From: Eledone cirrhosa
Taxonomy: Eukaryota
Direction of reading: 5' to 3'
NCBI GenBank assembly: GCA_964016885.1
Contig: OZ024743.1
Location: 313,782,001-313,846,000, forward strand
DNA length: 64,000 nt
Part shown: positions 1,881 through 63,050 of the stretch, in pieces
Numbering within the stretch: position 1 is the first letter of the stretch
Layout: every line of letters begins with the position of its first letter
Made by a program: the position numbers and the translations under genes
The notes under the pieces: model-generated
Told to the model about the DNA's origin: nothing
The model's database searches: none
The model's input: the letters and a program-made list of their open reading frames with translations, nothing else

Positions 1881-1943
<63 letters not shown>

Positions 1944-1947
1944 TAAT
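1881..1947. repeat. (TAA)n microsatellite between Dong-A 3' end and Tx1 copy 1 3' end
   Basis: Directly visible. Confidence 0.97.
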
Positions 1948-2232
1948 GATTTCTTTATTAACCACAAGGGTTTACATAAAGTAGACATTAAGGACAGTGC
2001 AGGACAATACAGGACGGTACAAATGGGCATTTCTGCGTGTAAAAAATAAAAACAGAGGATGTAACAAAAAAATAACAATGAAAAATTCCCTAATAGGAGG
2101 GAGACTTCGGAGAGACATTTGTGGAGAAAACCCAGTAAAAGGCCATAGTAACCCTGACCACCAAGGCAATTGCCCTCTCCCAGTTTTCCACCTTTAATTT
2201 ACAGATACGTACTCAGAGTACGTATCTGTAAA

Positions 2233-5200: not shown

Positions 5201-5612
5201 GTCGCCCACTAACACTAAAAAGCGGGACGTTCCAAGAAAGGTCTCCATACGCCGGAATAAATCAGGTCTCCCTGCTCCTGTCGGCCACTAGCCTGAAAGC
5301 TTGCCCGTCTCCGCTGGTCACGTCCAGCACCACCAACTTACCCTCTGAGTCCAGGAAGATGGCCCGTATGGCGAGATCCAAACCTCTCCGAAAAAGCACA
5401 GCAACTCCTCCCCCCGATCCAGGAGGGCTGGGAGATGCGTACACATCGTAGCCGCCGAAGATCGGTGCGAAGGCCCGTGCTTCAGAGATTCTTGTCTCAC
5501 TGATGTCCACTACATCTATGTTTAGTGGCCTGAGGTCGTTGAGCAGGTGACCCTGCTTCCATGACGACCCCAAGCCACGCGCATTTATGCTGCCTATTCT
5601 GAGTGAGATCAT
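2233..5612 (-). pseudogene. Tx1 copy 1 ORF2 (APE-RT-CCHC), multiple frameshifts
   Basis: ORF fragments 5262-5612, 5018-5248, 4876-5073, 3748-4815, 3455-3775 and 2233-3156 are colinear with the 750-aa ORF of copy 2. Confidence 0.9.
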
Positions 5613-5647
5613 GTTTAAAATGGAGTGGAAAAGATGGGAAAGACCAC

Positions 5648-11900: not shown

Positions 11901-12017
11901 GTATGAGCATAAGCCAGAGTCGGTGATAGAAAACGATCAGGTGAAGGTGCTGTGGCTTGATATTCATTTCAACAAACTTTCCAGTTAATTAACATCAATG
12001 ACTGCGACTCAAAGAAC

Positions 12018-12018
<1 letters not shown>
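8905..12018 (+). mobile_element. R4/Dong-like RLE retrotransposon, family B, near full length but with the RLE domain deleted
   Basis: N-terminal R..WT.E.N..VM.CY..GYRKRM..IW DNA-binding-like region; [43 protein letters not shown]; CRICGEREETIAHIVSEC knuckle near 11735-11795; ends in (TAA)n. 5'UTR boundary not defined. Confidence 0.9.
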
Positions 12019-12053
<35 letters not shown>

Positions 12054-12324
12054 AGTAATAATAATAATAATAATAATAATGTTTTCTTTATTAACCACAA
12101 GGGTTTACATAAAGTAGACATTAAGGACAGTACAGGACAATACAGGACGGTACAAATGGGCATTTCTGCGTGTAAAAAAAACGGAGGTTGAAATAAAATA
12201 ACAAAGAAAAATTCCCCAATAGGGGGGAGACTTCCGAGGGACATTTGTGGAGAAAGCCCATTAAAAGACATCAGTGGCCCTGACCACCAGGGCAAGTGCC
12301 CTCTCCCAGTTTTCCACCTTTAAT

Positions 12325-15300
12325 TTACAGACACATACTCAGAGAAGGCCCATTCTTTCGGGCCATACTTGCTTCTCTCACCCATCTTTCAACAAAATGC
12401 TGGGAAGAGAGCACTTCCCTCTCTACCCTGATTTTCCTTTTCAAATGAAATTTGAAAAAGTTAATCAGGGCATCACCGAAGAGGTAAGTGCTCGTCTTCA
12501 GCCCTTTCAAACGTGTCCACCATACTATCTCTTTCGCCATGGCCACCAAACAGATAAAAACTGCCTGCCCTTCCCGGCTAAAGGAAGAGGGCGGGGCAAT
12601 CCTCACGATGAACTCAGCTGATAGCTGGATCCGTCCTACACGTGACAGCAGATGTTCGACATAAACCCACAAGTCAGCAATGCTCGGACACTGGACGAGT
12701 GCGTGCAGGACGGATTCGTCGCCCTGCGCGCATCTCGGACATGCCCGGCTGACGGCACCTCCATGCCTGTAGAGTTTATCCCGAACTGGCAAAGCTCCTC
12801 GGTAGCACTGCCAGGCCAGGGATTTCTGGAAGTTGTCCATAGGCCCCGGCCAGAAAGTCCTTCCGAAGAGATTGGCTAGTTGATTTTCGCCGACGCCTAG
12901 AGTTTCTCCAAGTACGTCGTCGCTCTTCGCCTCCACTAATCACCTATAGAACGCCAAGGTGGAGTTTCCACCGATCACATTGCCCGATTGGTCGAGGGCT
13001 GTGAGCGCCTGAAGACATTCCAGTCTCCAAGCGCTCCCTCTCGGTCTTCGCTTGACCCAGGACTGCAGCTCCGTCAAGGAGACGAGCTGGGTAAAAACGC
13101 GTCTAGCAAACGGCGACCACACCTGATCACCGTCGAGGGAGAGGTGGAGATGTCGTAGCCTGAGCGCGTGTCTGCGCATCATCAGCCACGGCATGCCCAG
13201 CCCTCCACGTAGCGGGTGTTGACAGCAGATGGACCGCCTGACCATCGGAGCGCGTCCCTTCCACAAGAAGCGAAAGAGCAAACGCTCCAGTGCAGTAAGG
13301 CGGGGCTTAGGACAAGGTACGACGGTCAGGCGGTAGTAGATGACGAAGGCGATGTACGCATTCGCCACCTCCGCTCGACCTTTCAGGGATAGCTTCCTCT
13401 CGGCCCATTTCTGGGTGAGAGAAGCCACCCTGCTCGTCACCTCGTCCCAGTTTTTGTCCGTCTGGAGGTCTGGACCGAACCAGACTCCTAGCAATTTAAC
13501 CGGTCCGTCCAGCGCCCGACGACGCTGTTGGACGGCATGGACCTGCCTCTCCAGGTGCCGAGCTGCAGGCCCACTGACTTTTCCTGGTTGATCATTGCTC
13601 CTGTCACCGCTTCGTATTCTGTTAGTGTAGTGCCGATCGCCTCGATGTGTTTGGCGTTCGACACCACTACGGTGACATCGTCCGCATATGCTGACACGGA
13701 TCTTCCGCATTCTAGTTCGCGCGGGACCCCCCTCAACGTCTCCAGTTTGTACAGTAATGGCTCGAGATTCAATACGTACAATAGGGACGAGAGGGGACAT
13801 CCTTGGCGGACCGAGCGCATGATGTTGAACGGTTCCAAAAGGTGACCGTTCACTCTCACTACAGAGCAGATGTCGCTGTGCATGGCAGCGATCCAGCCTC
13901 TGAAGACGGGCCCAAAGCCAGCCGCCCTCAGGACTGCCGCTAGGTAACGATGGTCGTCCCTATCGAAGGCTTTCGACTGATCTAAATTGATCAAAGACCC
14001 ACCCGTGCCAGGTTCCCTAGCTACCCTCCCTACGATGTATCGCATGAGGTGGAGGTTGTCGTGGATGGATCTGTCGGGAATGGCGCATGTCTGTGCCTCT
14101 CCCACCAGACCACCAACGACAAGCGCCAACCTCTTTGCTAGCACCTTGGCCAAAATCTTGAACTCTGTGTTTAGCAGAGTTATGGGCCGACAATTTACTA
14201 TGTTATCCCCCTTGTTCGGATCCTTTCTCAGCAGCGCCACCGCTCCTCGGCTCACAGAGCTGGGAATTCTCCCGTTCTGTTGCCAGTTGCAGTAGACGTC
14301 CGCCAAGAGGCCTCCGAACAAGTTTGGCATTTGTACGTAAAGTTCATAGGGCAGACCATCCAAACCAGGCGATTTACCCCTTGTGCAACTAGTCATTGCA
14401 TCCCGTACTTCAGCGGTTGTTATCGGCTTTTCGCAACACTCCGCCTCAGTGGCCGAAAGCCGCGGCAGTCCGTCGAGGTAGACACTAAAGTCCATCTCCC
14501 GATCCGGCCCGCCACTGCCCTCGAACAACTGAGCGAAGTGACGCTGAAACGCTTCACACATTTGCCCGGCATCGAGTAGCATGCGCCCGTCGTGGTCCAC
14601 CAAAGACCGGATCGTGGCTTTGTTTCCATGACGCGCCTCCGCCACTCGGGCCCATTGAACGGCTTTCGTCCCCTCGTGTCTGAGAGCACGCACCCTAGCT
14701 CTGAAAACGCAGCCTTCGTGCTTTGCATTGAATAATTGGTCAAGGGCCAATTTCGCCGCAAGTACGTCGGTCGCGATGCCTTTGCTAAGCGCCTCATCTA
14801 ATTTTCTAACTAGTTCTCCCTCTGCTCTATTTTTCTCTATTGCTAAAGTCTTACTAAACCTAATGGACTCTATTCTAATTGCTCTTTTCAGAGCAAACCA
14901 CCACTTGTTGTTGACGATGGCCCCCGTCAACGCCCGCTTAACTAGTTCGCTAATCCGGCCTCTGTTGGCCTTGCGCGCTGGTAAGGACGCGTTTAGCTTC
15001 CAGTAGCCGGGTCCTCGCCTATGAAGCCTATCTAAGTCAAACACACAGATCACGAATTTGTGGTCCGTGTAGCTGACTATCTTGAATTGTTGACAGCCTA
15101 TGCTAGACCTATCTATTTCCCTACAAAATATTCTATCTAGATATGATCTGGATGACCCTATGCGATTTGTCCAAGTCCACATTGGTACATTCGGGAAATC
15201 CATTCGGTACCTGTCAGACAGTTCAAAACGTCTGAGCAGGTTGGTGAGACTCTTGCACCCTCCTTCCCTATCCACTAATCCCACACAATCCCAGCGTGCA

Positions 15301-15740
15301 TCTAAGATCCCGTTCCAGTCCCCCACTAACACTAAAGAGCGGGACGTTCCAAGAAAGGTTTCCAGACGCCGGAAGAAATCAGGCCGCCCTGCTCCTGTCG
15401 GGGCATAGACGGCCACTAACCTGAAAGCTTGCCCGTCTCCGCTGGTCACGTCCAGCACCACCAACTTACCTTCTGGGTTCAGAAAGATGGCCCGTATGGC
15501 AAGATCCAAACCTCTCCGAAAAAGCACAGCAACTCCTCCCCCCGATCCCGGACGGCTGGGAGATGCGTACACATCGTAGCCGCCGAAGATCGGTGCGAAA
15601 GCCTGTGCTTCGGAGATTCTGGTCTCGCTGATGGCCACTACATCTATGTTTAGTGACCTGAGGTCGATGAGCAGGTGGCCCTGCTTCCATGACGACCCCA
15701 AGCCACGCGCATTTATGCTGCCTATTCTGAGTGAGGTCAT
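12325..15740 (-). pseudogene. Tx1 copy 2 ORF2 (APE-RT-CCHC); frameshift near 13500 and stop near 12940
   Basis: ORFs 13488-15740, 12940-13800 and 12325-12936. Confidence 0.92.
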
Positions 15741-15774
15741 GTTGAAAAGGAGTGGAAAAGATGGGAAAGACCAC

Positions 15775-17622
15775 TTACCTTACTTCTCGTAGGGGAAGGA
15801 CGGTTTTTCCATCCTTTTCACTGCTTGTGGCCTCCTCAGGAAGGATGTCCTTATAAATCCTCCTGGAGAGTGCTTGTCGGAAGTCTCCGATGTCTTTGGG
15901 GAATTTTTTGTTTTAGTGTCATGTACGTTTTCTGTGTGATGCGAGTGATTTGTATGTGTGAAGGTGGTGTGAATTTTGGGGTTGTTGTGTAGTCTTTTTC
16001 TGTGATGCTGGTGTTGTGTTGGATGTAGTGTAATAATTGCTTGTTGTTCAAATTTAATGCTGTGTAGTGTGTATCGTTTTGGTTGTTTTGTTTTGTTTGC
16101 GTTTGTTGTGGGTTTGTTTCTGTTTCGCATTTTGGTGACTTTTGTGGTGTAGGTGATGGTGGTGTTGGGGTTAATGATGGTGATGGTGTTGGTGTTTGGG
16201 TTGATGGGATTGGCGATGCTGGTGTGGATGGTGGCATATCTGTCCTAACTTTTTTGTTTCTTAATTTATTTGCTTCCCTCTGTATTTTGTTTTTGGAGGG
16301 GGAAGGAAGAGAATTTTTTCTTTTTTGGTTTCTTTTTTATTTCCGGATATCGTTTCCCACTCCTCGTCGTCACAATCTGTCTCCAGTTGTGATAGGCCGG
16401 GGAGTGGAAAATCCTCCACAGCCGTTAGTTTTGGTTGTGGCGTGGTGGATGGTGTAGGCGCTGGTGCTAGTTCTGAAGCATTGGGTGGTGGTGGTGTTGG
16501 TTTTGCTGGTGGTGTTGGTTTTGCTACTGTTGCTGGGGTTGTTGCTGTTATAGTTGCTTCTGTTGTTGCTGCTACAGTTGTTGCTGCCATCTCTGCTACT
16601 GGTGGTGTTGATGGTTGTGTCACTGGGGTGGGTAGGAGAGGTGGCCTCAACCTTTTAGCCTGAGGGCAGAAAGCCCTTAGGTGGGTTCCTTCACCACAAA
16701 CGACACACCTAGGTCTTCTGCCCTCGACAATTACCGTGAGGTGGCTGCCGTCAGTGAGGTCTATTGCCTCTGGGATCTCCTCAATGCTTTTTTGGTCCGC
16801 TTGGATCAGGAGCTCCATCCCAGATCCGGACCAGTTCTCCTGCTTTTCTTTTGCTATTGCTATTATTTTTGTGTTGGCTTCGATGCCGGCGAGGACAGCC
16901 GCTATTAGCCAGGGAATTTCGATGGCCGGTGGAACGTGGGTCACCCTGATCTTTACGAGTCTCTGGCCACAATAGCTTGGGACGAGTGTGAAGTCGTCAC
17001 TTCTTAATGGGGCCATGGAGTGTTCTCTAGCCTCCTCTGGTGTTTCAAAGAACACGTCCACGATTCCATACTTTTGCCCACGTCTGATGTGGGTTTTTCT
17101 TGCCCACACATGTCCCAAAGCTTTTTGGATTTGGGACTCGGATGCCCGTTCCACTCGGCGCGATTTTACATTTATTGTTCTATACGACACGGTGCATAGG
17201 CGCCGATGCTCCATTTTATTAGGTGGGGGGGGGGACTGACCCTGTACCCATCTTTCTTTACCATTTGTTTGGCATTTTCTAAATCCTCCTGAGTTACCGT
17301 AAATGCTTCGAACTGTTTTGCTACTTTGGCGAAACTGAGGGGGGGGGGGGGTTATAATTTCATTGTTGTTGTTGTTGCTATCGTTAATATTAATTTTAGT
17401 TTCAGTTGTGGTGGTGGTGACGTCAGTCGTCTTTGGTGGGGAAGAGTCCATTTTGCTTGATTTCATTTCGACATCACGAGTTAATTTATTTTTTTCTTCT
17501 TTTGTTTCTGTTGTCGCGGTGGTGGTGGTGGTGGTGGTTGTCGCGGTGGTGGTGGTGGTGGTGGAGGCTTTAACACCTGCAGTCATTGGTAATGGCGGGA
17601 AATGAATGTCTGCCTGAGACAA
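15775..17622 (-). pseudogene. Tx1 copy 2 ORF1; two frameshifts in A-runs; true C-terminus ...KFPKDIGDFRQALSRRIYKDILPEE...LREVR*
   Basis: ORFs 16261-17622 and 15851-16237; manual translation of 15775-15905 aligns with the copy 1 end (KFPNAVGDFR..NRRVYSDIL.EE...QIR*). Confidence 0.85.
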
Positions 17623-37791: not shown

Positions 37792-37910
<119 letters not shown>

Positions 37911-38068
37911 GAGGAGGTTATAGTTCACTTGAAGCATTGTGTAATGAGGTATAAACGTTAGAATATGTGTAATAAGGCTAAGACAATGCAGGTATGGACA
38001 TAGAAAAAAGAATGCAATAGTGAAAGATATTGATGTGAATTCGTCTTTCACCTTGAATTTATTTAAAT

Positions 38069-38108
38069 GTCCTTAATTTTCGAGATAATATCTCTTCTTC
38101 GGAGGGAA
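38069..38108 (-). ncRNA. Putative minimal hammerhead in pLTR (identical copy at 41226-41265)
   Basis: Minus strand: cct-CCGAAGA-a-gagat att atctc-GAAA-at-TA-agg; only 3 bp of stem I. Confidence 0.6.
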
Positions 38109-38511
38109 GTAAAGGTCTCAAACCAGCATCTTTAAATCTCTAATCAAGCCATGCTGACCGGAAATAGTATAGAGTATCTGTTCTAACTTTAATATAAAAG
38201 AATTAAAATTAGGTGGAAAAAGAGTAGTCTCCCCTTAAGAGGGGTTTGTTTATGTTTTGTTTTTGTTTTTGTTTTGTTTTTTTAAATTTTATATGCGTGC
38301 CTGTATATGTGTGTGGGAGAATGCATGAAGGTGTAGGTATGTGGGTGTGTGGGTGTGAGTGTGGAAAGATAGGTATAATCGTAAAAGTGGGGGGTAGGTG
38401 TTGTCTGGTGTTAGAACTGGTATTGTGTGTGTATGTGTGAGAGAGAATAAGTGGAGGTGTGCGCGTGCGTGTGTGTGTGTGGGGTGTGTAAAAATGGGGC
38501 TAGAGGCCCTA

Positions 38512-41094
38512 TCAGGTTATAAATTGGGTGTTGACCTCTAGTCTATTATTGATTGGTGGATGTGTTCTATCTATAATAAGTGCTTCCTTAATTCTAAGAT
38601 TGCCGAGGTTTCTTTCCTTAGTTTCTATCCTAACTGTTATGTTTTTATCGGTGTTTTTGCATTTAACTAGGTGTTTCTTAAATGAGGAAGCGTTAGTATT
38701 GAGGTGTTCTTTTATTCTTATGTGGAGTGGTCTGGTGGTGCTACCTACGTAGAAGTTGTTGAATTCGTCACACTCTAGTCTGTATACTACGTAAGCCTGG
38801 TGGCATAGGTCTGTGTCGTTGATGGGGCAGTTGGCTAGTCTGCAGCAGTTGTCATGTCTGGTGGAGTGTCTCTTAGCCAGCCGTCCGCACAAAGAAGGAC
38901 CCGAGTGGGCCAGTTGAATATCCAGACCCTCTCGTCTGATGGCTCTGCGGGTGGCTGTTGTTGTTTCTTCACTGAAGTGTGGGAGCTTCAGGAAGCAAGT
39001 GTTAGTGCCTCGGGTGTGGTGTCCTCTGTTCTTTCTGGCACGGTTTGTGGTGGATGTCGTGTATCCATTCAGTTTGAATACTTCCAGGAAATGTGTGGTG
39101 TGTGTGTCTCGGTCTCTGGCGTCGGTGCATTTGTTCTTGATACGTGCCAGTTCGTTCTTTATGTATCCGAACTTGGCACCGAGTGGGAGGGCCGATCTGA
39201 AATGTACGAACAAGTCCCTGCTGGCGGATTTTTTATAGAAGCAGGTGTGGATGTTGCCTTCCTCTGTTACCCTGAGTTGGAAGTCCAGCAGGGATAGGGA
39301 TCCGCGGTCATCGGGGTGTTCCATGCTGAACTTTATACTGGCGTCCATGCTGGAGAATGTTGTGTATATTTTCTCTGCCTCCTCACGGGATGATGTAAGG
39401 ATGAGTATGTCATCTACATATCGGGTGAAGAAGGCATGGGAATGGCAGGTGTTGAGGGCTCGGCATTCTAGCTGGTTCATGTAAGTGATGGCCAGCAGGC
39501 CAGAGAGGCTGGATCCCATGGGTAATCCTGTTGTCTGTCTGTATGTGTGGTGGTGGAAGGTGAAGTACGTGTTGTCTACTGTGAAGGACAAAAGCTGGTG
39601 TATGTCCGTCGGGTGGAGGCCGTAGCAGTGGATGTTCTCTGCGACCACGCAGTCCGTCAATAAATCGACAGCTGGGTGAGCGGGGACTGTAGTGTAGAGG
39701 GAGACAACGTCGAGGCTAAAAGCGTATTTATTTAGTTTAAGTTGTTCAGGCTGGAGTTGGTGTAATCTACGTATAACTTCGTCGAAGCTACTGACATGTC
39801 CGGGGAAGGTGGAGAGTAGAGGCTTGAGGACCTGGGAGAGAAGCCAGGAAATTTTGTATAGGGGTCCTTCTATGCTAGAGACGATGGGTCTTATATGCGT
39901 CTTAGTGCTATTCTTGTGGGTCTTGATGAGGTGGTAGAAAGTGGGCAGTCTGCTATTTCTAGTGGTGTAGTTGAGTTTAATTTTATTCGGGAGTTGTCTT
40001 CTCCTACAGATATCGAACCAAATGGAGTTGGTCTGTTTTTCGATTTGGGCTGCGGTCATGTCCGGGATCACTGTGTACAGTTCACTGTCGCTTAGGTGTT
40101 CGAAGGCTATGTTATTGTATGTGGCTTGAGAGATGACCCAGAACTCTTTACCTTTGTCGGATGGTAAGTAAATAAGTTCCTTATTCCGTAGGTTCTTCAG
40201 GGCGAGTTGTTGTGTCCTGGAGAGGTTAGGGGCCATCTTCTTCTGTTTCCGTAAGATGTTAAATACGGAATGTTTTAGTCTCGAGAGTTTTTCTTCCAGC
40301 TCGCGGTTGGCGGGCGGTGGATAGAGTGGGCGATCTAGTTGGTATATCGGGAATCTGGGTGTGGTGGATTCCGTGGTGTTGTTGTCGAGAGTCGATATCC
40401 ATTTCAGTTGGTAGGCAGTCCGACAGAAATTCGTTTCTATGTCGAGCCATAGTCTGTCGTCCAGTCTCTGTTTCAATATGAACTTGGGACCCAGGCTGAG
40501 GAGGTCTAATTCCTCTCGGGAGAGGGATCCTGTCAAGTATGTGACGAGGTGTTTTGCGTCAGGTGTGTTGTTGGTCGGGGTGCCGCTAGGTTCGGTGTTG
40601 GTAACGTATTGTTCGCCTCTGTTGGTGTTTAGCGTTGGGATGTTGTTAAGACAGTTGGCCGTCCTGAGTTTGAGAAATTTTTGTGTTAGGCGTATTTTCT
40701 CGTAGTCTCGGCGGTGGTGGTATGACCTGTCTATAGTGGCGGAGATGACCTTGGACAGAGGTTCTGGGGTTTCAGCGAGTTGTGGTACAAGGCTGGAGAT
40801 AGTCCGTATGTGATGTTGTAGCGTGCGGTGTAGGTGTTGTATGAGTTTTCTTAGGCAGAATTTTTGTATGTAACTGAGTGATCGTTTGAGGCCTGGTGAT
40901 TTGAAGCATGTTGGTAGGTGTAAATTTTTGATGGTTTTGGGAATGATGTTGTTATTCAGGCATCGTTTTAGGAAATTTATTTGGCAGCCGGCTTTGGCGC
41001 GCTTTTCAGATAGCTGGAAGAGTTTCTTTACAGTTGTGAACTGGGCCTGGCTCAGGCGTAATGAAAGGAGGAGGTTATAGTTCACTTGAAGCAT
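38512..41094 (-). CDS. PLE reverse transcriptase + GIY-YIG endonuclease (open frame 38512-41208; first ATG at 41094)
   Basis: PSDKG, FYHLIKTHK, IRPIVS, SLDVVSLYT, GLPMGSSLSG, RYVDD, LSLLD; VVYRLEC..FYVGSTTRPLHIRIKEH..LRIKEALII..P.IN. Confidence 0.93.
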   Translation of the reverse strand: MLQVNYNLLLSLRLSQAQFTTVKKLFQLSEKRAKAGCQINFLKRCLNNNIIPKTIKNLHLPTCFKSPGLKRSLSYIQKFCLRKLIQHLHRTLQHHIRTISSLVPQLAETPEPLSKVISATIDRSYHHRRDYEKIRLTQKFLKLRTANCLNNIPTLNTNRGEQYVTNTEPSGTPTNNTPDAKHLVTYLTGSLSREELDLLSLGPKFILKQRLDDRLWLDIETNFCRTAYQLKWISTLDNNTTESTTPRFPIYQLDRPLYPPPANRELEEKLSRLKHSVFNILRKQKKMAPNLSRTQQLALKNLRNKELIYLPSDKGKEFWVISQATYNNIAFEHLSDSELYTVIPDMTAAQIEKQTNSIWFDICRRRQLPNKIKLNYTTRNSRLPTFYHLIKTHKNSTKTHIRPIVSSIEGPLYKISWLLSQVLKPLLSTFPGHVSSFDEVIRRLHQLQPEQLKLNKYAFSLDVVSLYTTVPAHPAVDLLTDCVVAENIHCYGLHPTDIHQLLSFTVDNTYFTFHHHTYRQTTGLPMGSSLSGLLAITYMNQLECRALNTCHSHAFFTRYVDDILILTSSREEAEKIYTTFSSMDASIKFSMEHPDDRGSLSLLDFQLRVTEEGNIHTCFYKKSASRDLFVHFRSALPLGAKFGYIKNELARIKNKCTDARDRDTHTTHFLEVFKLNGYTTSTTNRARKNRGHHTRGTNTCFLKLPHFSEETTTATRRAIRREGLDIQLAHSGPSLCGRLAKRHSTRHDNCCRLANCPINDTDLCHQAYVVYRLECDEFNNFYVGSTTRPLHIRIKEHLNTNASSFKKHLVKCKNTDKNITVRIETKERNLGNLRIKEALIIDRTHPPINNRLEVNTQFIT

Positions 41095-41323
41095 TGTGTA
41101 ATGAGGTATAAACGTTAGAATATGTGTAATAAGGCCAAGACAATGCAGGTATGGACATAGAAAAAAGAATGCAATAGTGAAAGATATTGATGTGAATTCG
41201 TCTTTCACCTTGAATTTATTTAAATGTCCTTAATTTTCGAGATAATATCTCTTCTTCGGAGGGAAGTAAAGGTCTCAAACCAGCGTCTTTAAATCTCTAA
41301 TCAAGCCATGCTGACCGGAAATA

Positions 41324-41400
<77 letters not shown>

Positions 41401-44198: not shown

Positions 44199-44238
<40 letters not shown>

Positions 44239-44268
44239 AGATCGAAAGATGGTTAAAATAATTCCAAG

Positions 44269-44339
44269 TATTTTATTATGCGCATTTCAAAAACAAATAT
44301 CATCATGACATGATATCTGCTTTCTCATCAGATAAAATA
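44269..44339 (-). ncRNA. Type I hammerhead (family copies at 47687-47757, 48042-48112 and 48323-48393, all +)
   Basis: Minus strand: tattttat-CTGATGA-gaaagcagatatca..tgatatttgtttt-GAAA-tgcgca-TA-ataaaata. Confidence 0.88.
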
Positions 44340-46629
44340 GGGAGACATGATATGAAGCTTAAAAAACACTTGTGAGCAGTAAAGTTTTAAATCAACATAT
44401 GAAAATTAAATTAAGATGGATGTATGAGATTGGGAAAAAGTACGGGGGGTGGAAAAGGTAAGGAAGAGGAAGAAATAAGAGTAAAGGATGGTGGGGGAGG
44501 AGTATAAGAAGGAAGGATGAGAGAGGAGGAGAGATGGGTGATAGAAAGAGAGAGAGATAGCCTTTACAACTGAGAAAAAATATTGTCTCACAGAAAGAAA
44601 TTAAAAAGCCGTTGGAAGATAATAGATAATTTTAAAGATTTTGAAATTAAAAGTTAATGAAGTTTATGCCTGAAGAAAAAGGAATTAAGAATAGTATGAA
44701 ATTAAGGTTTTATATTGAAGGGTTTAATAATATGTGCGAAGAAAAGAATTTATTAATATGTTTTATTAATATGTATTATTAAAATAAAAATATTAATGAT
44801 AAAAATATTTATTCAATTTGATATTGCCAGCTACTATTCTTCTATTTCGCCTTCACTTCTCAACAACGCTCTATCTTTCGCATTTAAATAATCTGACATT
44901 ACCACAGATGAACGTTACATCATTCTCACCGAAAGAAAAACTATCTTAGAATTCAACAATGAATACTGGACTAGAGCCGATGCTTCCAACAATTTTGATA
45001 TCACAATGGGTGCTTCCGATTCATCGCAATTGACTGATTTGATTGGTATTTTTATTTTGAATTCTTTAAATCGGAAAATTCCTTAACTTCGCGGTGGAAT
45101 TTATCGTGACGATGGCCTTTTTACTATCTTAAACTGCAAGTTAGTTAACCTTAATATTATTAAGAACAATATACGTGATCTCTTTAAGCACCATAACCTT
45201 AAAATTGAATTTGATAACAACGTCAAACTAGTTAACTTCTTGGTTATATCCCTTAATCTTGACACTTGCCTATATTACACTTACCATAAAAACAATGAGA
45301 ATCCCAATTACTATAATAATGCGCTTTCTAAAGCCGGTTATCCTGATAAAATTAAATACAGTAAGGAAACCAATCCTCGAAGGTCTTACAGTAAAATAAT
45401 TAATTATGAACATTCCAATAACTTAAATAAAAGACCTAGATACAAAAATATAATTTGGTATAATGCTCCTTTTTCTATATCTATTAATTATAATATTCCT
45501 AAACTATTCTTTAGGGCCTTAGATAAATGCTTCCCTCCCTCACATATCTATAGTAAAATCTTTAACAAACATACATTAACATTTTCTTATTCCACTACTT
45601 GCAACATCTCTAACATTATCTCTAAACACAACAATAACATATTAAATAATAAATTACATCCTTCCAGTCGAAATAATAGCAGTAGTATACCCGACGTCAT
45701 TGTTAACTCTAGGCTAGATTCTGTAAATTAAAATACGACGTCAAACGTAACTTCGTTAAATGTTCATAATACCAATCTAAATCAGGAAACTATTGTTCCT
45801 ATCGTAAACAACTTCTCCAATCCAATTCCTTCTATAAATAATACTAGGTCACTTGTTAATAACTCTGTTAATTTCTCTAATCGTAATTGTAATTGGCCTA
45901 TTAAAACTAAATGTCCTCTTAATAACCATTGCCTTGATAAAAACTTAGTCTATGAATGTAAGGTTATAACTGATACTAATTCTTTTACCTATTTCGGTTC
46001 CACTTCCACTTCCTTCAAAGCTAGATTTTATAATCCCAATTCGTCTTTTAGATACCAACTTAAAAGAACTAACACGGCACTCTCGGAACTCATATGGTCC
46101 TTGAAAGATAAAAATATTAACTATAACATCTCTTGGAGGAAGGTTTGTTCCGCCTTTCCTTACCTGAATTCTTCCCTATCCAGAACATGTAATCTTTGCC
46201 TAGCCGAGAAATTTACCATTATATTAAATTTCAATTCTATAATAAATAGACGCACAGATTTATTTTCGCTCTGCTTGCATAAATTCCATAGAACATTCCA
46301 TAAAGTATACAGCTAATATCTTAATACCTTACTAGTTTAAAATCCTTTTTACTCAAAGGCTTATATATCTTTTACAAATATACCCATCTTTCTACTTATT
46401 TCAGTATTATATATTATATAATTCTGTGTCATTCTATGTCATTCTATGTCATTCTATGTCATTCTTCTTTATCATTTTCCTTTCTTCCTTTTTTCTTTTT
46501 AATTTCTAATCTCTAATCTGTACTTTTTCTTCCCAACTACTTCTCAATTCATATTATTACTCACCACAACATTATCCATTCTTCCTTCTTTCCTCATATC
46601 ATTGACCATACAAATTATTTGTTTAATAC

Positions 46630-47170
46630 ATTATAATATTACCATTAGAAGTCCTTCGTAAATATATAAATTTTTTGACGTTAGATTTTTTCTTCCTTAA
46701 ATTTTTTTTATCTCTTCTATCCTTTCATGCTCGTTTTAAACCTACTACTTAATTTTACTTTTACATATTACAATACATAAAAACAAACTTAAACCCTAAC
46801 TAATTTCTTTTAATATATTATAATATTACCATTAGCAAATATTTCGTAAACATATATACTTTTTGATGATAGATATTTTCTTCCTTAAATATTCTTTTTT
46901 ATTCTCTCCTTCCGCGCTCATTTTAAACATATTATTTACGTATACATATTACAATACATAAAAACAAACTTAAACCCTAACTAATTTCTTTTAATATATT
47001 ATAATATTACCATTAGAAAATATTTCGTAAACATATATACTTTTTGATGTTAGATATTTTCTTCCTTAAACATTCTTTTTTATTCTCTCCATCCGCGCTC
47101 ATTTTAAACATACTATTTACGTATACATATTACAATACATAAAAATGAACTTAAACCCTAACTAATTCCT
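46630..47170 (+). repeat. Three diverged ~182-bp tandem repeats in the PLE 3'UTR
   Basis: ATTATAATATTACCATTAG...CTTAAACCCTAACTAATT recurs three times. Confidence 0.85.
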
Positions 47171-47787
47171 CTAAATTCATAACTCATTTATTCTTCTCCT
47201 TCTTTTCACATTATATCCTTAATATCATTAATATTTTTATTTTAATAATACATATTAATAAAACATATTAATAAATTCTTTTCTTCGCACATATTATTAA
47301 ACCCTTCAATATACAAACCTTAATTTAATAGTATTCTTAATTCCTTTTTCTTCATGCATAAACCTCATTAACTTTTAATTTCAAAATCTTTTAAATTATC
47401 TATTATCTTCCAACGGCTTTTTAATTTCTCTCTGTGAGACAACATTTTTTCTCAGCTGTAAAGGCTATCTCTCTCTCTTTCTATTACCCATCTCTCCTCC
47501 TCTCTCATCCTTCCTTCTTATACTCCTCCCCCACCATCCTTTACTCTTATTTCTTCCTCTTCCTTACCTTTTCCACCACCCCCTCACTTTTTCCCAATCT
47601 CATACATCCATCTTAATTTATTTTTCATATGTTGATTTAAAACTTCACTGCTCACAAGTGTTTTTAAGCTTCATATCATGTCTCCCTATTATATCTGACG
47701 AGAACGCAGATATCATCCCATGATGATATTTGTTTTTGAAATGCGCATAATTAAATACTTGGAATTCTTTTAACCATCTTTTGATCT

Positions 47788-47880
<93 letters not shown>

Positions 47881-47882
<2 letters not shown>

Positions 47883-48428
47883 GGAGGTGAGTTTTATTGT
47901 AGTACAATAAAGCAATGCAGATATCGGATGAGAAGCACTCTACAGTTTGTAGGACTGGAGTATACATAATATATATGAACAAAAGATGATTTAAAACTGC
48001 ACTATCCACAAGTGTTTTTTAACCTTCATATTATGTCTTCCTATTTTATCTGATGAAAACACACATATTATTGCATGATGATATTTGTTTTTGAAATGCG
48101 CATAATAACATACTTGGAACTCTTTTAACCATCTTTTGATCTTATATTATATATATATATATAGGAGGTGAGTTTTATTGTAGTACAATAAAGCAATGCA
48201 GATATCGAATGAGAAGCACTCTACAGTTTGTAGGACTGGAGTATACATAATTTATAAGAACAAAAGATGATTTAAAACTGCACTATCCACAAGTGTTTTT
48301 TAACCTTCATATCATGTCTTCCTATTTTATCTGATGAAAACACAAATATTATTGCATGATGATATTTGTTTTTAAAATGCGCATAATAAAATACATGGAA
48401 CTCTTTTAACCATCTTTTGTTCTTATAC

Positions 48429-48433
<5 letters not shown>
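47881..48433 (+). repeat. Tandem dimer of a 281-bp HHR unit sharing its 3' ~165 bp with the adjacent PLE terminus
   Basis: TAGGAGGTGAGTTTTATTG at 47881 and 48162; each unit ends in HHR + CATCTTTT + (TA)n. Confidence 0.85.
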
Positions 48434-48467
<34 letters not shown>

Positions 48468-48472
<5 letters not shown>

Positions 48473-50414
48473 TAATTTAATATATCTACTAACATAAGCG
48501 CACAGCTGTACGCTAATGCCAGCAAATACACAGGTTATGTCATAGTACCTAGGTGGTTCAATGCAGGAGGATGCAGAACAATAATATAACGGACGTAAAA
48601 TAAGAAAATTCTTAAAAAAAATTTTTTTTTTAAATTTTAACTTACTTAAATTTTCACTCCAACTAATTAGTTTCTGCAATGGGATAAAGACAGTTACGTA
48701 ATCTAACTGTCGAGAATTCATTGCGTCATCAGGGAGTCTATTCTCAGCTAAGTCTCCAGGCAATGCGCGGACACCGGGGACTCATATAAAAATAATAATA
48801 ATTCAGTAGATGGAACAGCTAGCGGGGACTGAATTCCATGCACTGAAATCCTCGCTGCCTCTGGTCAGATGGCCGATTCTAAAGAATCAATCACGTGACA
48901 CAGAGGCTAGTCAGTAGGAATGGGATGGTAAGATGACAGACAACTACTAACACCCCCCCAAAAATTTAGAAGTGGTTTTGGCGGGTTTGCTCGACAAATC
49001 AGTGATTTGGAGATAAATATAGATAATTTAATATATCTACTAACATAAGCGCACAGATGTACGCTAATGCCAGCAAATACACAGGTTATGTCACTGAATT
49101 ATTATTATTTTTATATGAGTCCCCGGTGTCCGCGCATTGCCTGGAGACTTAGCTGAGAATAGACTCCCTGATGACGCAATGAATTCTCGACAGTTAGATT
49201 ACGTAACTGTCTTTATCCCATTGCAGAAACTAATTACTTGGAGTGAAAATTTAAGTAAGTTAAAATTAAAAAAAAAAAAATTTTTTAAAGAATTTTCTTA
49301 TTTTACGTCTGTTATATTATTGTTCTGCATCCTCCTGCATTGAACCACCTAGGTACTATGACATAACCTGTGTATTTGCTGGCATTAGCGTACATCTGTG
49401 CGCTTATGTTAGTAGATATATTAAATTATCTATATCTATCTCCAAATCACTGATTTGTCGAGCAAACCTGCCAAAACCACTTCTAAATTTTTTTGGGGGT
49501 GTTAGTAGGCGTCTGTCATCTTACCATCCCATTCCTACTGACTAGCCTCTGTGTCACGTGATTGATTCTTTAGAATCGGCCATCTGACCAGAGGCAGCGA
49601 GGATTTCAGTGCATGGAATTCAGTCACCGCTAACTGTTCCATCTACTGAATTATTATTATTTTGATATGAGTCCCCGGTGTCCGCGCATTGCCTGGAGAC
49701 TTAGCTGAGAATAGACTCCCTGATGACGCAATGAATTCTCGACAGTTAGATTACGTAACTGTCTTTATCCCATTGCAGAAACTAATTAGTTGGAGTGAAA
49801 ATTTAAGTAAGTAAGTTAAAAATTTGATTTTAAATTTTTTTAAAGAATTTTCTTATTTTACGTCTGTTATATTATTGTTCTGCATCCTCCTACATTGAAC
49901 CACCTAGGTACTATGACATAACCTGTGTATTTGCTGGCATTAGCGTACATCTGTGCGCTTATGTTAGTAGATATATTAAATGATCTATATTTATCTCCAA
50001 ATCACTGATTTATCGAGCAAACCTGCCAAAACCACTTCTAAATTTTTTGGGGGGTGTTAGTAGGCGTCTGTCATCTTACCATCCCATTCCTACTAACTAG
50101 CCTCTGTGTCACGTGATTGATTCTTTAGAATCGGCCATCTGACCAGAGGCAGCGAGGATTTCAGTGCATGGAATTCAGTCCCCGCTAGCTGTTCCATCTA
50201 CTGAATTATTATTATTTTTATGAGTCCCCGGTGTCCGCGCATTGCCTGGAGACTTAGCTGAGAATAGACTCCCTGATGACGCAATGAATTCTCGACAGTT
50301 AGATTACGTATCTGTCTTTATCCCATTGCAGAAACTAATTAGTTGGAGTGAAAATTTAAGTAAGTTAAAATTAAAAAAAAATTTTTTTTAAAGAATTTTC
50401 TTATTTTACGTCTG

Positions 50415-50418
<4 letters not shown>
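48468..50418 (+). mobile_element. Retrozyme-like array: ~552-bp ORF-less monomer, ~1.1 inverted units followed by ~2.4 direct units, 4 HHRs
   Basis: Inverted 48468-49093, direct 49093-50418; HHRs at 48656-48737 (-), 49163-49244, 49715-49796 and 50268-50349; (TA)n flanks. Confidence 0.92.
49715..49796 (+). ncRNA. Type I hammerhead, representative of the 552-bp unit
   Basis: actcc-CTGATGA-cgcaatg..gacagtta..taactgtc..cattgca-GAAA-ctaattag-TT-ggagt. Confidence 0.9.
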
Positions 50419-50496
<78 letters not shown>

Positions 50497-50800
50497 ATAT
50501 ATATATATATATATAGATATATACAAACATATATATATATATATATATATATTAATTCAAAATATATATTATTACTATAATAAATAATATATATATATAA
50601 TTTATTATATATATACATAAGGGCGGTGGATTGGGAGTATCGGTAGAGGGACGGACGCCATGCTTTGCAGCACAATTATGTCCCTTTACGGACTGAGTTC
50701 AAATCCCGCCGCGGAGGTTAACTTTGCCTACAAACAGTAGAGTGCTACTTATCCGATATTTGCATTGCTTTATTGTGCTACAATAAAACTCACCTCCTAC

Positions 50801-50832
<32 letters not shown>

Positions 50833-50884: not shown

Positions 50885-51150
50885 ATAATAATAAAATGAA
50901 GACTAAAATCTAAAGAGGGCACGATAAGGAAAATATATATCAAATATATAAGAACCGTAGAGCAAATATTTATTAAAATAACAGATTAAAGTTTAAGCAA
51001 AGAATCGCTGCTTTCACCCTTAACGAGATCTTCTGAAACTAACAAAGTCAATCTGTAAACGCAGAACTGGATATTTCAAAAAACGTTGCAACCGGAGGAA
51101 GACAGGAAGACGATACTTTGGTTCGTGGTAACGTTCGCTATGCAAATAAG
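50880..51150 (-). mobile_element. Abundant short repeat with an HHR-like fold at 50990-51040; other pieces at 23646-23688, 36262-36322, 36437-36560, 55472-55630, 60338-60495, 61085-61240
   Basis: Minus strand: agttt-CAGAAGA-tctc gtta agggt-GAAA-gca..tgc-TT-aaact, extended by cagatt/aatctg; common 3' end ATTATTATTACTA then (TA)n. Confidence 0.7.
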
Positions 51151-51167
51151 TATATATATATTTATTT

Positions 51168-52575
51168 AAATTTTCACCAGTTGCCCACACATGAAATCAC
51201 ACTTGCTTTCCAGCTCATATAAACTTAACTCACTTTCAAATACATATCCTCCATAAAATTTTATTCTTCACTTTTTTAAAATTATCCTCTTTACAGACTG
51301 CTCTTTCTGATTTACTTTCATTTTTAAATTTATTTTTAATTTTATTTTTATTTTTACTTCACATCAACCAGAACCCCCTCCCCCCACACCTACTTTTCGA
51401 TTCACTTACCTAATATCTTCACATTCCACATTTTACTTCCCCATTTCCTTTCACTACCTCATATCATAGTCACTTGCGTTTTCCATTCCAGATATATTCT
51501 GTTGTTTCGCAGCCGATTTTATATTTGTACTAATTTATTCATATGGCTGATTTATAATCTATATCTATGTGTCTGAGTGTGCTTATGTGTGTATACGTTC
51601 TGTATATGAATACGAACGCCTCCGTATGTGTGCGTGCGTACGTATATATATGTGTGGGTACGTGTGTTTTTATATCTATGTTTTTTTATATCTATGTTTT
51701 TTATATCTATGTTTTTTACATTCTTATTTTTACGTGTGTGTGTATGCGGGTGAATGTATATGTATGTGTATGTATATGTGTATATATGTATATGTATGTG
51801 TGGGCGTGTATGTATATGTGTATATATATATATAGTCGCGTACGTACGTGTGATTAGATATACATGGGGCGATATATATATATACGTGCCTCGTGTGTAT
51901 GTATGTACGCATGCATGCGCTTTTGTCTGTACGTATTTGTGTGTATAAATATGTTTATATATATATATGTGTATGTACGTGCGTACCTATGTATGTTTTC
52001 TTTTCTCTGGTGTAAATTGATTTCTTTCTCTTTGATTTAAAAGGTTTTCATTCTCATATATTGTTTCATTTTTATACATATATCGAGAATGACACTTCAT
52101 TTTACTATTACACTCCCTTCCCTCTTTATCTTCCGCATATAAGTGACCGCGCGTGTATATGTGATTATACGCGTGCTTTCATACTCGTATGTGTATTGAA
52201 TACCTGTATCTGGATATGATCATACATTTTCTTTTTCAACTCATATTATATACGTATTTGTGGTCATATATACACAAATATACTTGCCCTCATATATGTA
52301 CTTACGCACACATTTTCACCATACACATGCATTTGTACATACACACATATGTACATTTGTGAGTGTATATACATACATATACAAATACCCTAACTATATT
52401 TCCTTATATTTTTTTTATATATCTCTTTCATTACTTCTATTTATATATTTTTTGCTTTTGTTGAGGAGACTTTCCAAATATTTGTCTATGTTTTAAATTG
52501 CCTTGTCCGACGAACGAATGAGAACGTTTTTTGTATTCGTCTTATTCGGGAAACCTCTGGTAATGAGGTAATTAT
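51168..52575 (+). mobile_element. 5'-truncated PLE 3' end (same family as 53516-54777) with long 3'UTR and terminal HHR at 52501-52568
   Basis: 51168-51297 matches 54651-54777 (IFTSCPHMKSHLLS*); ccttgt-CCGACGA-acgaatgaga..tcttattcgg-GAAA-cc tct gg-TA-atgagg. Confidence 0.75.
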
Positions 52576-52594
52576 ATTGTATTGTTTATTATAC

Positions 52595-54777
<2,183 letters not shown>

Positions 54778-54784
54778 AATTTGC

Positions 54785-55055
54785 CACTTGACCAAGGAGG
54801 CAGCGAATTTTTCAGTGCTTAGAATCTAGCCCCGCTCGATTTTTTCGCTTTTTTCCATCCACTGAATTATTGTTATATAAGCTTCCAGTGTCCCCGCATT
54901 GCCTGGTGGCTCAGCTGAGAATAGACTCCCTGATGACGTAAGGCTTCTCTACAGGTATTACATAACTGTATTTATCCCCTTACAGAAACTAATTAGTTGG
55001 AGTGAAATTTTAGTAAGTAAGTCAATTTTCATAACTTTCTTATTTACGTCTTTCA
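54785..55055 (+). ncRNA. Diverged partial copy of the 552-bp unit with hammerhead at 54925-55003
   Basis: actcc-CTGATGA-cgtaagg..tacag..ctgta..ccttaca-GAAA-ctaattag-TT-ggagt. Confidence 0.88.
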
Positions 55056-55056
55056 T

Positions 55057-56315: not shown

Positions 56316-58860
56316 GTTATAGTGTTAAGGATACGGAGAGAAATAAAAATAAAAATAAATAAAGAGAGGTAGAAAGAGATATAGGTGGTGGGAGAAAAAG
56401 AGGTAGATCGAGTAATATCTATTATACGAGGTGGGAGAGATAGGGGAGGGGTGAGATACAGGAGGTAGAGTTAAAACAGCCGATACATAAGTCCCGTCAA
56501 GTGTAGAGGGAGGAGGAGAAGAGATATATTCAGAAATAAAGATGATAGCTTTAAAATATTATGTTTCATCAGTCTATCAATTCTTATGAATTATAATGTA
56601 AATATCAATATTCATGAATGAGACACATATCAATAATGTGTGAAAAAATAATGACTATATGTTTAGTTTAAAAATTCTTAGGTTTATAATCAAAATCTGA
56701 GATAAAATTTAAAAAAAATACTGAAATACATAAGTATATATGTATTTTCATGAAAAAAGTAAAAGAAAAAAGAGAAAGAAAAAGAGAAGATTATCTCAAA
56801 TTCAAGTTGACATTATAGACACACATGTGAGTTTAGGTGATCAGCTCTGTAAATTTTTATTTCACATGAAAATCTTCATTGCGTTACAAAAGATTCTACC
56901 ATACATATATGTACATACATATATATATACATAAAATATACATTATTAATAATAATATTCTTGCCCTCTCTTACATGATTATCGTTCAAGCATAGAATAG
57001 AACAGATATCAATATATTAAACACGCCAAGAATATTTCATTCCCCAGAATATCTAGGGCCGTAAGAAAACACAGTGTGCCCCGCATATCAATCACAGAAA
57101 TCAACTCTTCCAATTTATTTGACAATATATTGCCAAGTTCATTAGAAGCAATCAGAATCAAAAGCAAACAAAACCAAAATTATTCAACAAAACTTATTTA
57201 GCAGAAATCATTAAAAAAAAACCTTAGGATACCCGGTTGTTCTACAGATGCTCTTATATTTATTATAGAAGTTTATCTAGCTTAAAAATTTTATTCAATA
57301 GATTGGGAGCATCACCATTTTAAGGTAGTTTAATTACATCATTAATTATATACTCATGAAGAAGGTTTAAAAAATTGAAGGAATCGAAAGATTTATCGCC
57401 AAGTTTCATAAATAATTAAAAATCTTAAGTAAATATACTACATTTTAAATTTATATTTATATTTAAAAGTTGAGTTCAATCTATGTCTGCAGCAACTGAA
57501 TAAATTGGTCCGTAAATTAAGGGAATTTTTAGATTTTAGTATAAAGAATATCTCCTCCGCGCAGAGGTCACATGTCTCAGAAGAGGAATTAAAAGGAATC
57601 CCTCTTGAGACTATATTCCAAACCATCGAATATCCAACGTTATCATGTTTAAGTTGCCAGAGTAAGCCTGATAGTGATGTTGAAGATTTTTTGTTTGGAT
57701 CCGTGAAAGAATTCTTGTGATTATTATAGCGAAGTTTAAATTCTGTCGAGGTGGAACCAACATAATTAAAAGAATTTAAGTCAGTTTTAACATTACAGTT
57801 GTATATTATATTTTTAACTAAGCAATTGTTATTTAACGGGCATTTAGATCTATCTCTACAGTTACAGTTGTTTACTTGAATATTGTTTAGGCTATTATCG
57901 GTATTTTGGCTAGGTTTTAGATTCCTATTATTTATTCTATTAATATTTTGTGCTAAATTTTTGGTGGACAAGTAGGTTAATTTTATAGTATGTCTATTGA
58001 AAATTGAGTGATACTTATGTGTTCTAGGGAAGCGTTTGTCAAGAGCATTAAAAAATAGTTTAGCGATGTGGGTTTTAATTATATTTCTAGTTCTATTTCT
58101 TTTCTGGTTTTTGGAATTATTGTAATTCTTTCTATTATAGTTGTTAAAGTTGTTACCGTAATTAAAATTGTTGTTATTTTGGTTAGTTTGTCTATTATTA
58201 TCGATGTACATAATTTTATCACTATATCCTGCTCTAGCTAACGCTTCATTGTAATACTGGGCTTTTTGGTCGAAAATATTTTTATTAGATGAGATTCTAG
58301 AGATACGTTTTTGAACAGAGTTCACTATAATATTTTTAACAGATCTGGGGTGGTTGGAGTTAAAGTTGACATAATTCAAGTTTTCATTTAACTTGTGAAA
58401 TGGATAGTGAAGACATGTGTTGAGATTTAATGTTACATCTAGGAAATTGACTATTCTATGGTTATTCTCAATTTCTATTTTTAGATTAAGGTAATTAAAA
58501 AATTGTATAATTTGTTTTCTTTTTCTATTTAGTTCAGAGTTATTATTTTCAATAAGTAAAAGCATGTCATCTCGATATAATCCTCCGGTAACACCGGGTA
58601 TTTTCCTATGCAGCGAATTAATTATAAATAGGCCCACAAGGTCTGTTACCTGAGCTGAGTCAGATGATCCCATAGTAATGTCGAAATTGTTATCTCTATC
58701 TGCCCTAGTCCATAGTTGGTTATTAAATTCTATCAACGTTTTCCTTGCCGATAGTATAGCCGATAGTATAATGTGCATTTCATTGCTAGTTAGGTCTGTA
58801 TGTTTGAATGCGTAATTTATATCAGTTATAAAATATTTACTCGTTGTAACCCAACAATTT
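55880..58860 (-). mobile_element. 5'-truncated YRDD-type PLE with terminal hammerhead at 55923-55988
   Basis: ORF 57438-58778 (FDITMGSSDSAQVTDLVG, GLYRDD, CNCRDRSKCPL, YVGSTSTEFKLRYNNH, CDLC); minus strand tattttgt-CTGAAGA-gggcata..tatccct-GAAA-tatata-TA-atgaaata. Confidence 0.9.
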
Positions 58861-62056: not shown

Positions 62057-62199
62057 CTATTTAGTGATCTATAACATACTTGACCTCCTTTTCAACACAA
62101 GAGACATATAAAAACATATGCACACATTGATCCACAGTGGGATTACATACATCAAAATGATATAGCATGGCAATTTACATATAAAGGTTAAAGGATAAT

Positions 62200-63050
62200 A
62201 AAAAAAAAAAAAAAAAAAACTAAAAAAAACTAAAAAAAAAAACTAAAAAAAAAAAAAAATAAAAATAAAAATAAAAATAAATATAAAAATAAAAATAAAA
62301 ATAAAAATAAAAATAAAAATAAAAATAAAAATAAAAATAAAAATAAAAATAAAAATAAAAATAAAAATAAAAATAAAAATAAAAATAAAAATAAAAATAA
62401 AAATAAAAATAAAAATAAAAATAAAAATAAAAATAAAAATAAAAATAAAAATAAAATTAAAAATAAAAATAAAAATAAAAATAAAAATAAAAATAAAAAT
62501 AAAAATAAAAATAAAAATAAAAATAAAAATAAAAATAAAAATAAAAATAAAAATAAAAATAAAAATAAAATAAAAAATAAAAATAAAAATAAAAATAAAA
62601 ATAAAAATAAAAATAAAAATAAAAATAAAAATAAAAATAAAAATAAAAATAAAAATAAAAATAAAAATAAAAATAAAAATAAAAATAAAAATAAAAATAA
62701 AAATAAAAATAAAAATAAAAATAAAAATAAAAATAAAAATAAAAATAAAAATAAAAATAAAAATAAATATAAAAATAAAAATAAAAATAAAAATAAAAAT
62801 AAAAATAAAAATAAAATTAAAAATAAAAAAAATAAAAATAAAAATAAAAATAAAAATAAAAATAAAAATAAAAATAAAAATAAAAATAAAAATAAAAATA
62901 AAAATAAAAATAAAAATAAAAATAAAAATAAAAATAAAAATAAAAATAAAAATAAAAATAAAAATAAAAATAAAAAATAAAAATAAAAATAAAAATAAAA
63001 ATAAAAATAAAAATAAAAATAAAAATAAAAATAAAAATAAAAATAAAAAT
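62200..63050. repeat. Poly(A) grading into an (AAAAAT)n hexamer tract, ~850 bp
   Basis: Directly visible. Confidence 0.97.

Follow-up and report, generated by a model that had tools for sequence, protein, structure and literature searches.

An insertion at 48471-50415 of the window, the 64,000-nt stretch of Eledone cirrhosa DNA analysed here, is probably a tandem retrozyme without an open reading frame (ORF) that is copied in trans by a Hydra-clade Penelope reverse transcriptase (RT)-endonuclease, which primes both nicked strands of its target on one, probably circular, RNA. The original prediction, of a circular-RNA retrozyme copied by the RT of a Penelope-like element (PLE), is partly supported. 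It had the class right, in that the units are tandem and ORF-less and carry predicted type I hammerhead ribozymes (HHRs), and the insertion footprint gives strong support, as far as genomic copies can tell, to mobilisation by a PLE. It had not noticed that the copies use two fixed start sites in strict pairs. What is new and testable here is this strict two-start footprint, one start of each kind, together with a hairpin held in common with a Hydra PLE. A literature search, with most subscription journals outside its scope, returned no report of fixed paired start sites for a retrozyme and none that names Hydra PLEs as retrozyme partners.

The features on which the argument draws are as follows.

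44231-47795, plus strand: Hydra-like PLE, decayed (PLE-C), which itself carries an HHR; its remaining tail piece lies at 50727-50802
48432-48470, no strand: left (TA)n target
48471-49093, minus strand: inverted arm of 1.14 units, with its start at monomer position 123 and its 3' end ~200 nt beyond the cleavage site, at site 2
48656-48737, minus strand: HHR of the inverted arm, type I, intact; the sole HHR on that strand
49093-50415, plus strand: direct arm of 2.41 units, with its start at monomer position 409 and its 3' end ~80 nt beyond the cleavage site, at site 1
49163-49244, plus strand: HHR 1, with a G-to-C change in stem III, predicted impaired
49321-49345, plus strand: bulged hairpin directly 3' of site 1, whose motif recurs in the pLTR of Hydra PLE-A; possible binding signal for the RT
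49715-49796, plus strand: HHR 2, intact; GUU triplet, with cleavage predicted after 49791; stem II has a C-A mismatch at its base
49792-50344, plus strand: monomer of 553 nt, delimited by the cleavage sites predicted for HHR 2 and HHR 3; 38% GC
49925-49976, plus strand: long predicted hairpin in the interval between site 1 and site 2
50268-50349, plus strand: HHR 3, core intact; predicted cleavage after 50344
50416-50490, no strand: right (TA)n target
53514-55056, plus strand: Hydra PLE-A body (53514-54781; RT end plus GIY-YIG), joined at ~54781 to a partial family B unit

The whole insertion amounts to ~3.55 units of a 552/553-nt monomer, 1.14 inverted and 2.41 direct, which agrees with the ~1.1 and ~2.4 units that had been estimated, and its two arms overlap by 1 nt, at 49093. 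Its non-integer ends had been pointed out as well; these are real, but they are not arbitrary, the outer ends being the two fixed sites of the family. The (TA)n noted on both sides borders the insertion left and right and thereby hides any target-site duplication (criterion: more than 4 bp when present). No credible ORF had been seen, and none emerged: 16 stop-to-stop frames of at least 40 aa overlap the region, the longest is at most 169 aa, and a Pfam scan of two of the 16 returned no match. The unit holds no ORF with RT plus GIY-YIG of the kind found in an autonomous PLE, and a search for a Pol III promoter found no B box in either of the two monomers examined. The insertion thus lacks protein coding and has a GC content below 50%, as non-LTR retrozymes do, and HHR 2 and HHR 3 supply the consecutive complete head-to-tail HHRs of a non-LTR retrozyme tandem. 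The monomer had been thought unusually large; at 553 nt it falls inside the retrozyme consensus lengths of 51-972 bp given in the portion consulted of Li, Clavereau and Pollet (bioRxiv 10.64898/2026.07.22.740005).

Four type I HHR cores begin at +49168, +49720, +50273 and -48732, with the spacing of 552 and 553 that had been noted. The core and all three stems are present in three of these four copies, the other being mutated. Stem I has 5 bp, stem II is long, and stem III has 3 bp and a tetraloop set within a palindrome. That palindrome exists as claimed, but it measures 12 nt, not 8, and it is broken in HHR 1 by the G-to-C change, which also disrupts the 15.2-16.2 pair of the HHR numbering. 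Two of the three plus-strand HHRs are therefore intact, and 49792-50344 is the sole monomer with an intact HHR on each side. In modelling, the 12-nt palindrome forms no hairpin alone and its duplex is predicted at -10.8 kcal/mol, so that dimeric folding of the HHR through stem III is energetically plausible.

Conservation of this fold was assessed in 22 of 80 distinct HHR sequences, picked for abundance and diversity. Pairing was kept in 95.2% of cells and fell to 31-46% when partners were slid; double-sided changes occupied 42 cells, against 15.0 in shuffles. The compensatory changes are located in stem II, and the invariance of stem III is due in part to its having been in the search pattern. 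Some properties of the HHR count against the main reading. It is atypical in its C-A opposition at the base of stem II and its GUU triplet, and its minimum free energy (MFE) fold is not the active one (-23.1 versus -18.1 kcal/mol, the active fold standing 5 kcal/mol above the MFE). Rfam, at its gathering and E-value thresholds, did not detect the HHR of the insertion.

The insertion is not a chance arrangement, because a 22-nt stem III/stem I motif spanning the cleavage site has 9,169 exact matches in the genome and its reversed control has 0. A search of the 3.0-Gb genome with the monomer gave 2,019 candidates, of which the best 21 were scored, and a sister family B, with a 530-nt unit ~73% identical to the monomer, gave 2,778, of which the best 40 were scored. 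For a sample by position, the first 100 motif matches were grouped by eye into 63 loci, 60 of these were taken, and two segmental duplicates were dropped, leaving 58. Unit length in the family runs from 489 to 572 nt, and two intact tandem HHRs stand in 10 of the 58 sampled loci. Most copies are short and dispersed, with an inverted arm in about two thirds; they are insertions in unrelated flanks and carry no duplicated host flank, which sets them apart from integer tandem duplications. Nor is any sampled copy the terminal repeat of an RT ORF, since none in the 60 sampled loci or in 4 follow-up stretches continues into an RT/PLE ORF. A 5' flank common to L126, L127 and L155 was considered as a parent body and rejected, those loci being segmental duplicates (the source of the two that were dropped), and widely spaced same-strand HHR pairs proved to be separate small insertions without an ORF. 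The family is a real and recently active-looking family of non-LTR retrozymes, of a class and size already known. The genome also holds other ORF-less HHR tandem families, at L163 3525-4232 (~480 nt), L212 6500-7350 (459 nt) and L221 8000-9300 (483-511 nt); the hairpin that follows site 1 is also present in those of L163 and L212.

The copies start and end on the monomer in a regular manner. Among 103 arms in the 58 position-sampled loci, 41 have their 3' end 78-84 nt past the cleavage site (site 1), 52 have it at 186-207 nt (site 2) and 10 elsewhere, and their 5' ends are variable. Nearly all arms that end at site 1 or site 2 (88/93) pass into TA/TC repeats. The same loci contain 40 head-to-head pairs: 33 combine the two sites, with one arm ending at each, none joins two arms of the same site, and 7 have an unclassified end (p=1.2e-10). 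In 62 further loci, picked by similarity and including the insertion's own, the corresponding counts are 29, 0 and 9. Pooled, all 62 of 62 classifiable head-to-head pairs combine site 1 with site 2, 16 others being unclassified, and the same rule is kept in both long arrays described below; one-armed insertions also exist. A TATAT-like match to the target is found at site 1 and at site 2. With an inverted 5'-truncated copy, a tail at one end and a (TA)n target, the insertion bears the signature of PLE insertion as its features are given in the part of PMC8557442 that was available. The simplest reading would be two priming events, one per nicked strand, on one RNA, with each site usable once. 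That source reports that the PLE tail is often present at one end only and ascribes this to endonuclease resolution, which would be an alternative account of the one-sided pattern.

Which element supplies the enzyme is best approached through the PLEs of the same genome. PLE-A has the RWK, DKT and CxCX5C motifs in 3/3 full frames checked, and these are the motifs given for the Hydra clade (PMC8557442, as consulted in part). Its C-terminal endonuclease, canonical HHR and (TA)n target are likewise Hydra-clade features, so that PLE-A may be placed in the clade by its motifs. Open frames of 719 aa, with no stop within the match, occur in 6/88 PLE-A rows, and an HHR lies upstream of the ORF in 4/10 long frames. 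The order of the PLE-A pLTR is HHR, site 1, hairpin, site 2, ORF. Among 29 PLE-A HHR flanks (29 loci), 10 end near +27 to +49, which corresponds to site 1, and 13 near +108 to +114, which corresponds to site 2; 1 ends elsewhere and 5 continue into the ORF. At L042, a PLE-A locus, both types of end occur once each, in opposite orientation. PLE-C, a second Hydra-like family, forms site 1/site 2 pairs too. These two families are the PLEs that the comparison of ends covered.

The bulged hairpin that follows site 1 is common to retrozyme families A, B, D (L163) and E (L212) and to PLE-A, with a compensatory change, where 0.8 matches would be expected in shuffled flanks; among the ORF-bearing families examined, only PLE-A has it. 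Against its weight as a signal, the motif is also found in other uncharacterised repeats, the releasable monomer of the insertion carries a weakening change in it and lacks it in the MFE fold, and the PLE-C tail has no such motif yet shows the same pairing. The link between the retrozyme and PLE-A moreover consists of a ~25-nt motif and of architecture: a search of 79 PLE loci yielded no pLTR that could be aligned as a parent, the long matches there being separate retrozyme insertions. Because PLE-C forms its pairs without the motif, and because homology of pLTR length is wanting, what is likely is the clade of the partner, the Hydra clade, and not its exact family.

Several neighbouring sequences were considered in this connection. 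The PLE-A body at 53514-55056 is fused in sense to the family B unit, by template switching or by a deletion at the target. The piece at 54781-55056 is not a native PLE-A pLTR, since 29/29 other PLE-A copies have their own, different 3' UTR and the piece belongs to family B. Retrozyme-like copies downstream of PLE ORFs, in L212 and L219, proved to have been inserted separately, on the far side of a (TA)n. Among full PLEs, the nearest (38512-41229, RT plus GIY-YIG) was rejected as partner because its 262-bp repeat cannot be aligned to the monomer; it belongs to an element at 37910-41328 (minus strand) in (TA)n, with a 905-aa open frame, RT plus GIY-YIG, an FTRYVDD motif, an HHR-like core CCGAAGA, and flanking 262-bp direct repeats that are 99% alike. 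Another Hydra-like PLE, at 57483-58820 (minus strand), has a 473-aa frame and, ~1.5 kb downstream, an HHR whose stem III region is a TA palindrome. PLE families that target TA and have the RT motif WKRYLDDC are abundant in L211-L222, and a scan of their own 3' ends found no HHR. Most PLE-A copies examined (51150-52600, L032-L060) have the HHR core CCGA(C/T)GA in place of CTGA(C/T)GA, a change expected to stop cleavage, and cleavage may thus be dispensable for abundant PLE-A.

The retrozyme itself likely sits inside site 1 of its host PLE-C. Directly to its left, the 281-bp tandem at 47861-48446 is not a separate satellite; it consists of two small two-armed PLE-C tail insertions, each with an inverted site 2 arm and a direct site 1 arm with HHR. 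Elsewhere in the window are two LINE-type copies (1882-5652 and 12015-15779; endonuclease, RT, zf-RVT), 93% alike and ~10 kb apart, and an AATAAA array of ~143 copies at 62197-63050.

The animal non-LTR retrozymes, as far as the consulted portions of the published accounts describe them, resemble this family in their ORF-less tandem units with type I HHRs, GC below 50%, short palindromic helix III, predicted self-paired circle, co-occurrence with PLEs and length within 51-972 bp. Cervera and de la Pena (2020; PMC7229834) report circles of ~170-400 nt and units of 150-450 bp and propose PLEs as candidates; the present unit exceeds both that unit range and the circles shown experimentally, and it occurs mostly as short dispersed insertions, ~two thirds of them with an inverted arm. 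For fixed paired start sites and (TA)n targeting we found no description in those accounts. The link to PLEs also differs in kind, being footprint and hairpin here and homology to a whole pLTR there: in Xenopus, 24/57 retrozyme families have pLTR homology and 21/22 matching transposable elements are PLEs (bioRxiv 10.64898/2026.07.22.740005). That study found cleavage in 1/9 predicted retrozymes assayed and none in 8/9, which we count against the main reading.

The Hydra-clade PLEs described in the available part of Craig et al. (2021; PMC8557442) share the (TA)n target, the canonical HHR, the inverted 5'-truncated copy and the often one-ended tail, and those of the same genome share the order HHR, site 1, hairpin, site 2. 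Unlike them, the retrozyme has no RT or GIY-YIG ORF, and site 2 is followed by the next HHR instead of an ORF; its tail is ~120 nt, versus ~78 in PLE-A and the 30-40 bp published for the clade. The Poseidon element PAc of the green anole (Frangieh et al. 2024; PMC11167929, consulted in part) also has two internal RT starts downstream of the HHR and an AT-rich target, and its protein, a predicted dimer, nicks and extends both strands. The PAc starts, however, lie in an AC-rich loop, are not homologous to the target and are adjacent, 30-40 nt apart, whereas those of the retrozyme are TATAT-like and ~120 nt apart and their one-of-each rule was counted in genomic copies. HHR cleavage was unnecessary for PAc insertion in vitro, which again counts against the main reading. 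An earlier study of PLEs, as far as it was available, describes dimeric HHRs, HHR pairs on opposite strands 100-700 bp apart and a circle model (PMC4209133).

Twin priming by L1 offers a further parallel, because there too a single RNA that is primed twice yields a head-to-head inversion. The second priming position of L1, however, varies, and its two arms have little overlap; in the retrozyme neither position varies, and the same monomer positions are often present in both arms.

Whether the template is a circle or a linear multimer bears on the central reading, and we favour the circle. Several counts speak for a continuous, uniform template. Arms cross the cleavage site in 74 of 93 cases, and stops there number 2 against 2.6 expected in 104 arrivals, a test biased by the selection of each locus for one intact junction. 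In L235, eight unit segments show 1 singleton in 474 columns; in the dispersed loci L234, L010 and L007, all 4 segments have private variants. A position-matched test showed no effect of rank (54 versus 68 and 30), which points the same way. In an unmatched count, pairs of the same rank were slightly closer (102/6793, versus 205/10779 for different ranks), which is neutral or counts against a circle. Median divergence is 1.76% within a locus and 1.81% to the nearest other locus (25/44, p=0.54), values that do not separate circle from array. In favour of the circle, the predicted circular folds of both monomers have z values of -5.9 and -6.0 (40 shuffles).

In the linear alternative, the same PLE machinery would prime at the same two sites on an uncleaved multimer transcribed from tandem arrays, with the HHR optional and no circle needed. 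We consider this rather unlikely, even though several observations suit it. Arrays of 50 and 13 HHRs are present (among the best 25 of 2,418 candidates scored), so that uncleaved linear multimers can exist; 10/58 sampled loci have two intact tandem HHRs; the absent stop at the cleavage site is equally consistent with uncleaved RNA; and unprocessed RNA was the main in vitro substrate in the part of PMC11167929 consulted. The arrays, however, do not look like sources. The larger, of ~28 kb (G000 C4, ~291.979-292.008 Mb; L251-L253 and L231), has grown from one arm of a two-armed insertion, and its shifting higher-order pattern of ~6 units, with repeated common variants, indicates that it expanded after insertion. 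We rejected it as a master copy, since its internal variants, one of which is in about half its units, are missing from the five closest dispersed loci; it is a case in which a retrozyme has given rise to a satellite. Some variants are fixed in the 13-HHR array and were found in no other sampled locus. It follows that these two arrays are not the sources of the sampled copies, and both are themselves two-armed daughters, although with the best 25 of 2,418 candidates scored, unseen source arrays are possible. Conservation of the HHR, with covariation across subfamilies, also speaks against a dispensable ribozyme.

The copying could instead be done by a TA-targeting element other than PLE-A or its close kin, either another Hydra family or the WKRYLDD or FTRYVDD PLEs. 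The genome has five or more Hydra-like families, besides further PLE families whose ends lie in (TA)n, and the missing pLTR-length homology to PLE-A would fit as well. This seems improbable to us given the restriction of the hairpin to PLE-A among the ORF-bearing families examined and the sense junction in the window between a PLE-A body and a family B unit, though a target deletion could also explain that junction. That the unit is a mere pLTR remnant, a DNA-level tandem duplication or a satellite, with no RNA-based mobility of its own, is very improbable and largely refuted. Local expansion of arrays does happen, and local amplification from pLTRs has been proposed in the portion consulted of bioRxiv 10.64898/2026.07.22.740005, but thousands of dispersed copies with unrelated flanks, fixed 3' ends, variable 5' ends and strictly paired arms, of which none sampled runs into an ORF, are not what such processes would leave.

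Under the preferred reading, of a retrozyme copied in trans by a Hydra-clade enzyme, a locus with two intact tandem HHRs would be transcribed and cleaved, possibly through a dimer at the stem III palindrome, releasing a ~550-nt monomer that is likely ligated. The PLE protein would bind the RNA at its structured part, 3' of where cleavage occurs, and would nick both strands of a (TA)n. One DNA end would then prime at each of sites 1 and 2, the positions where arms are seen to end. Each RT would proceed upstream across the HHR junction, often for more than one round, and on one RNA this would need strand displacement. The two cDNAs would then be joined head to head, at points that vary among the copies observed. 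A few insertions would later expand locally into satellite-like arrays, as one array has done. We also put forward, as a more speculative proposal that we hold with less than even confidence, that a dimeric Hydra-clade enzyme holds one circular ribozyme RNA, primes at its two fixed sites and rolls round from both, the hairpin acting as a portable signal for any small circle.

The enzyme that moves animal retrozymes, and the origin of PLE inverted repeats and tails, are stated to be open in the parts consulted of PMC7229834, PMC8557442 and bioRxiv 10.64898/2026.07.22.740005. Here a countable footprint likely identifies a copying enzyme of Penelope type, where the partner has so far been inferred mostly from sequence likeness, and the same genome offers both a hairpin that may serve in recognition and a possible partner whose reading frames are fully open. 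A minimal test system would consist of the 553-nt RNA, a (TA)n target and a protein of ~712 aa. If the proposal is true, one mechanism would explain the tandems of retrozymes, the one-sided tail of PLEs and the inverted repeats of PLEs.
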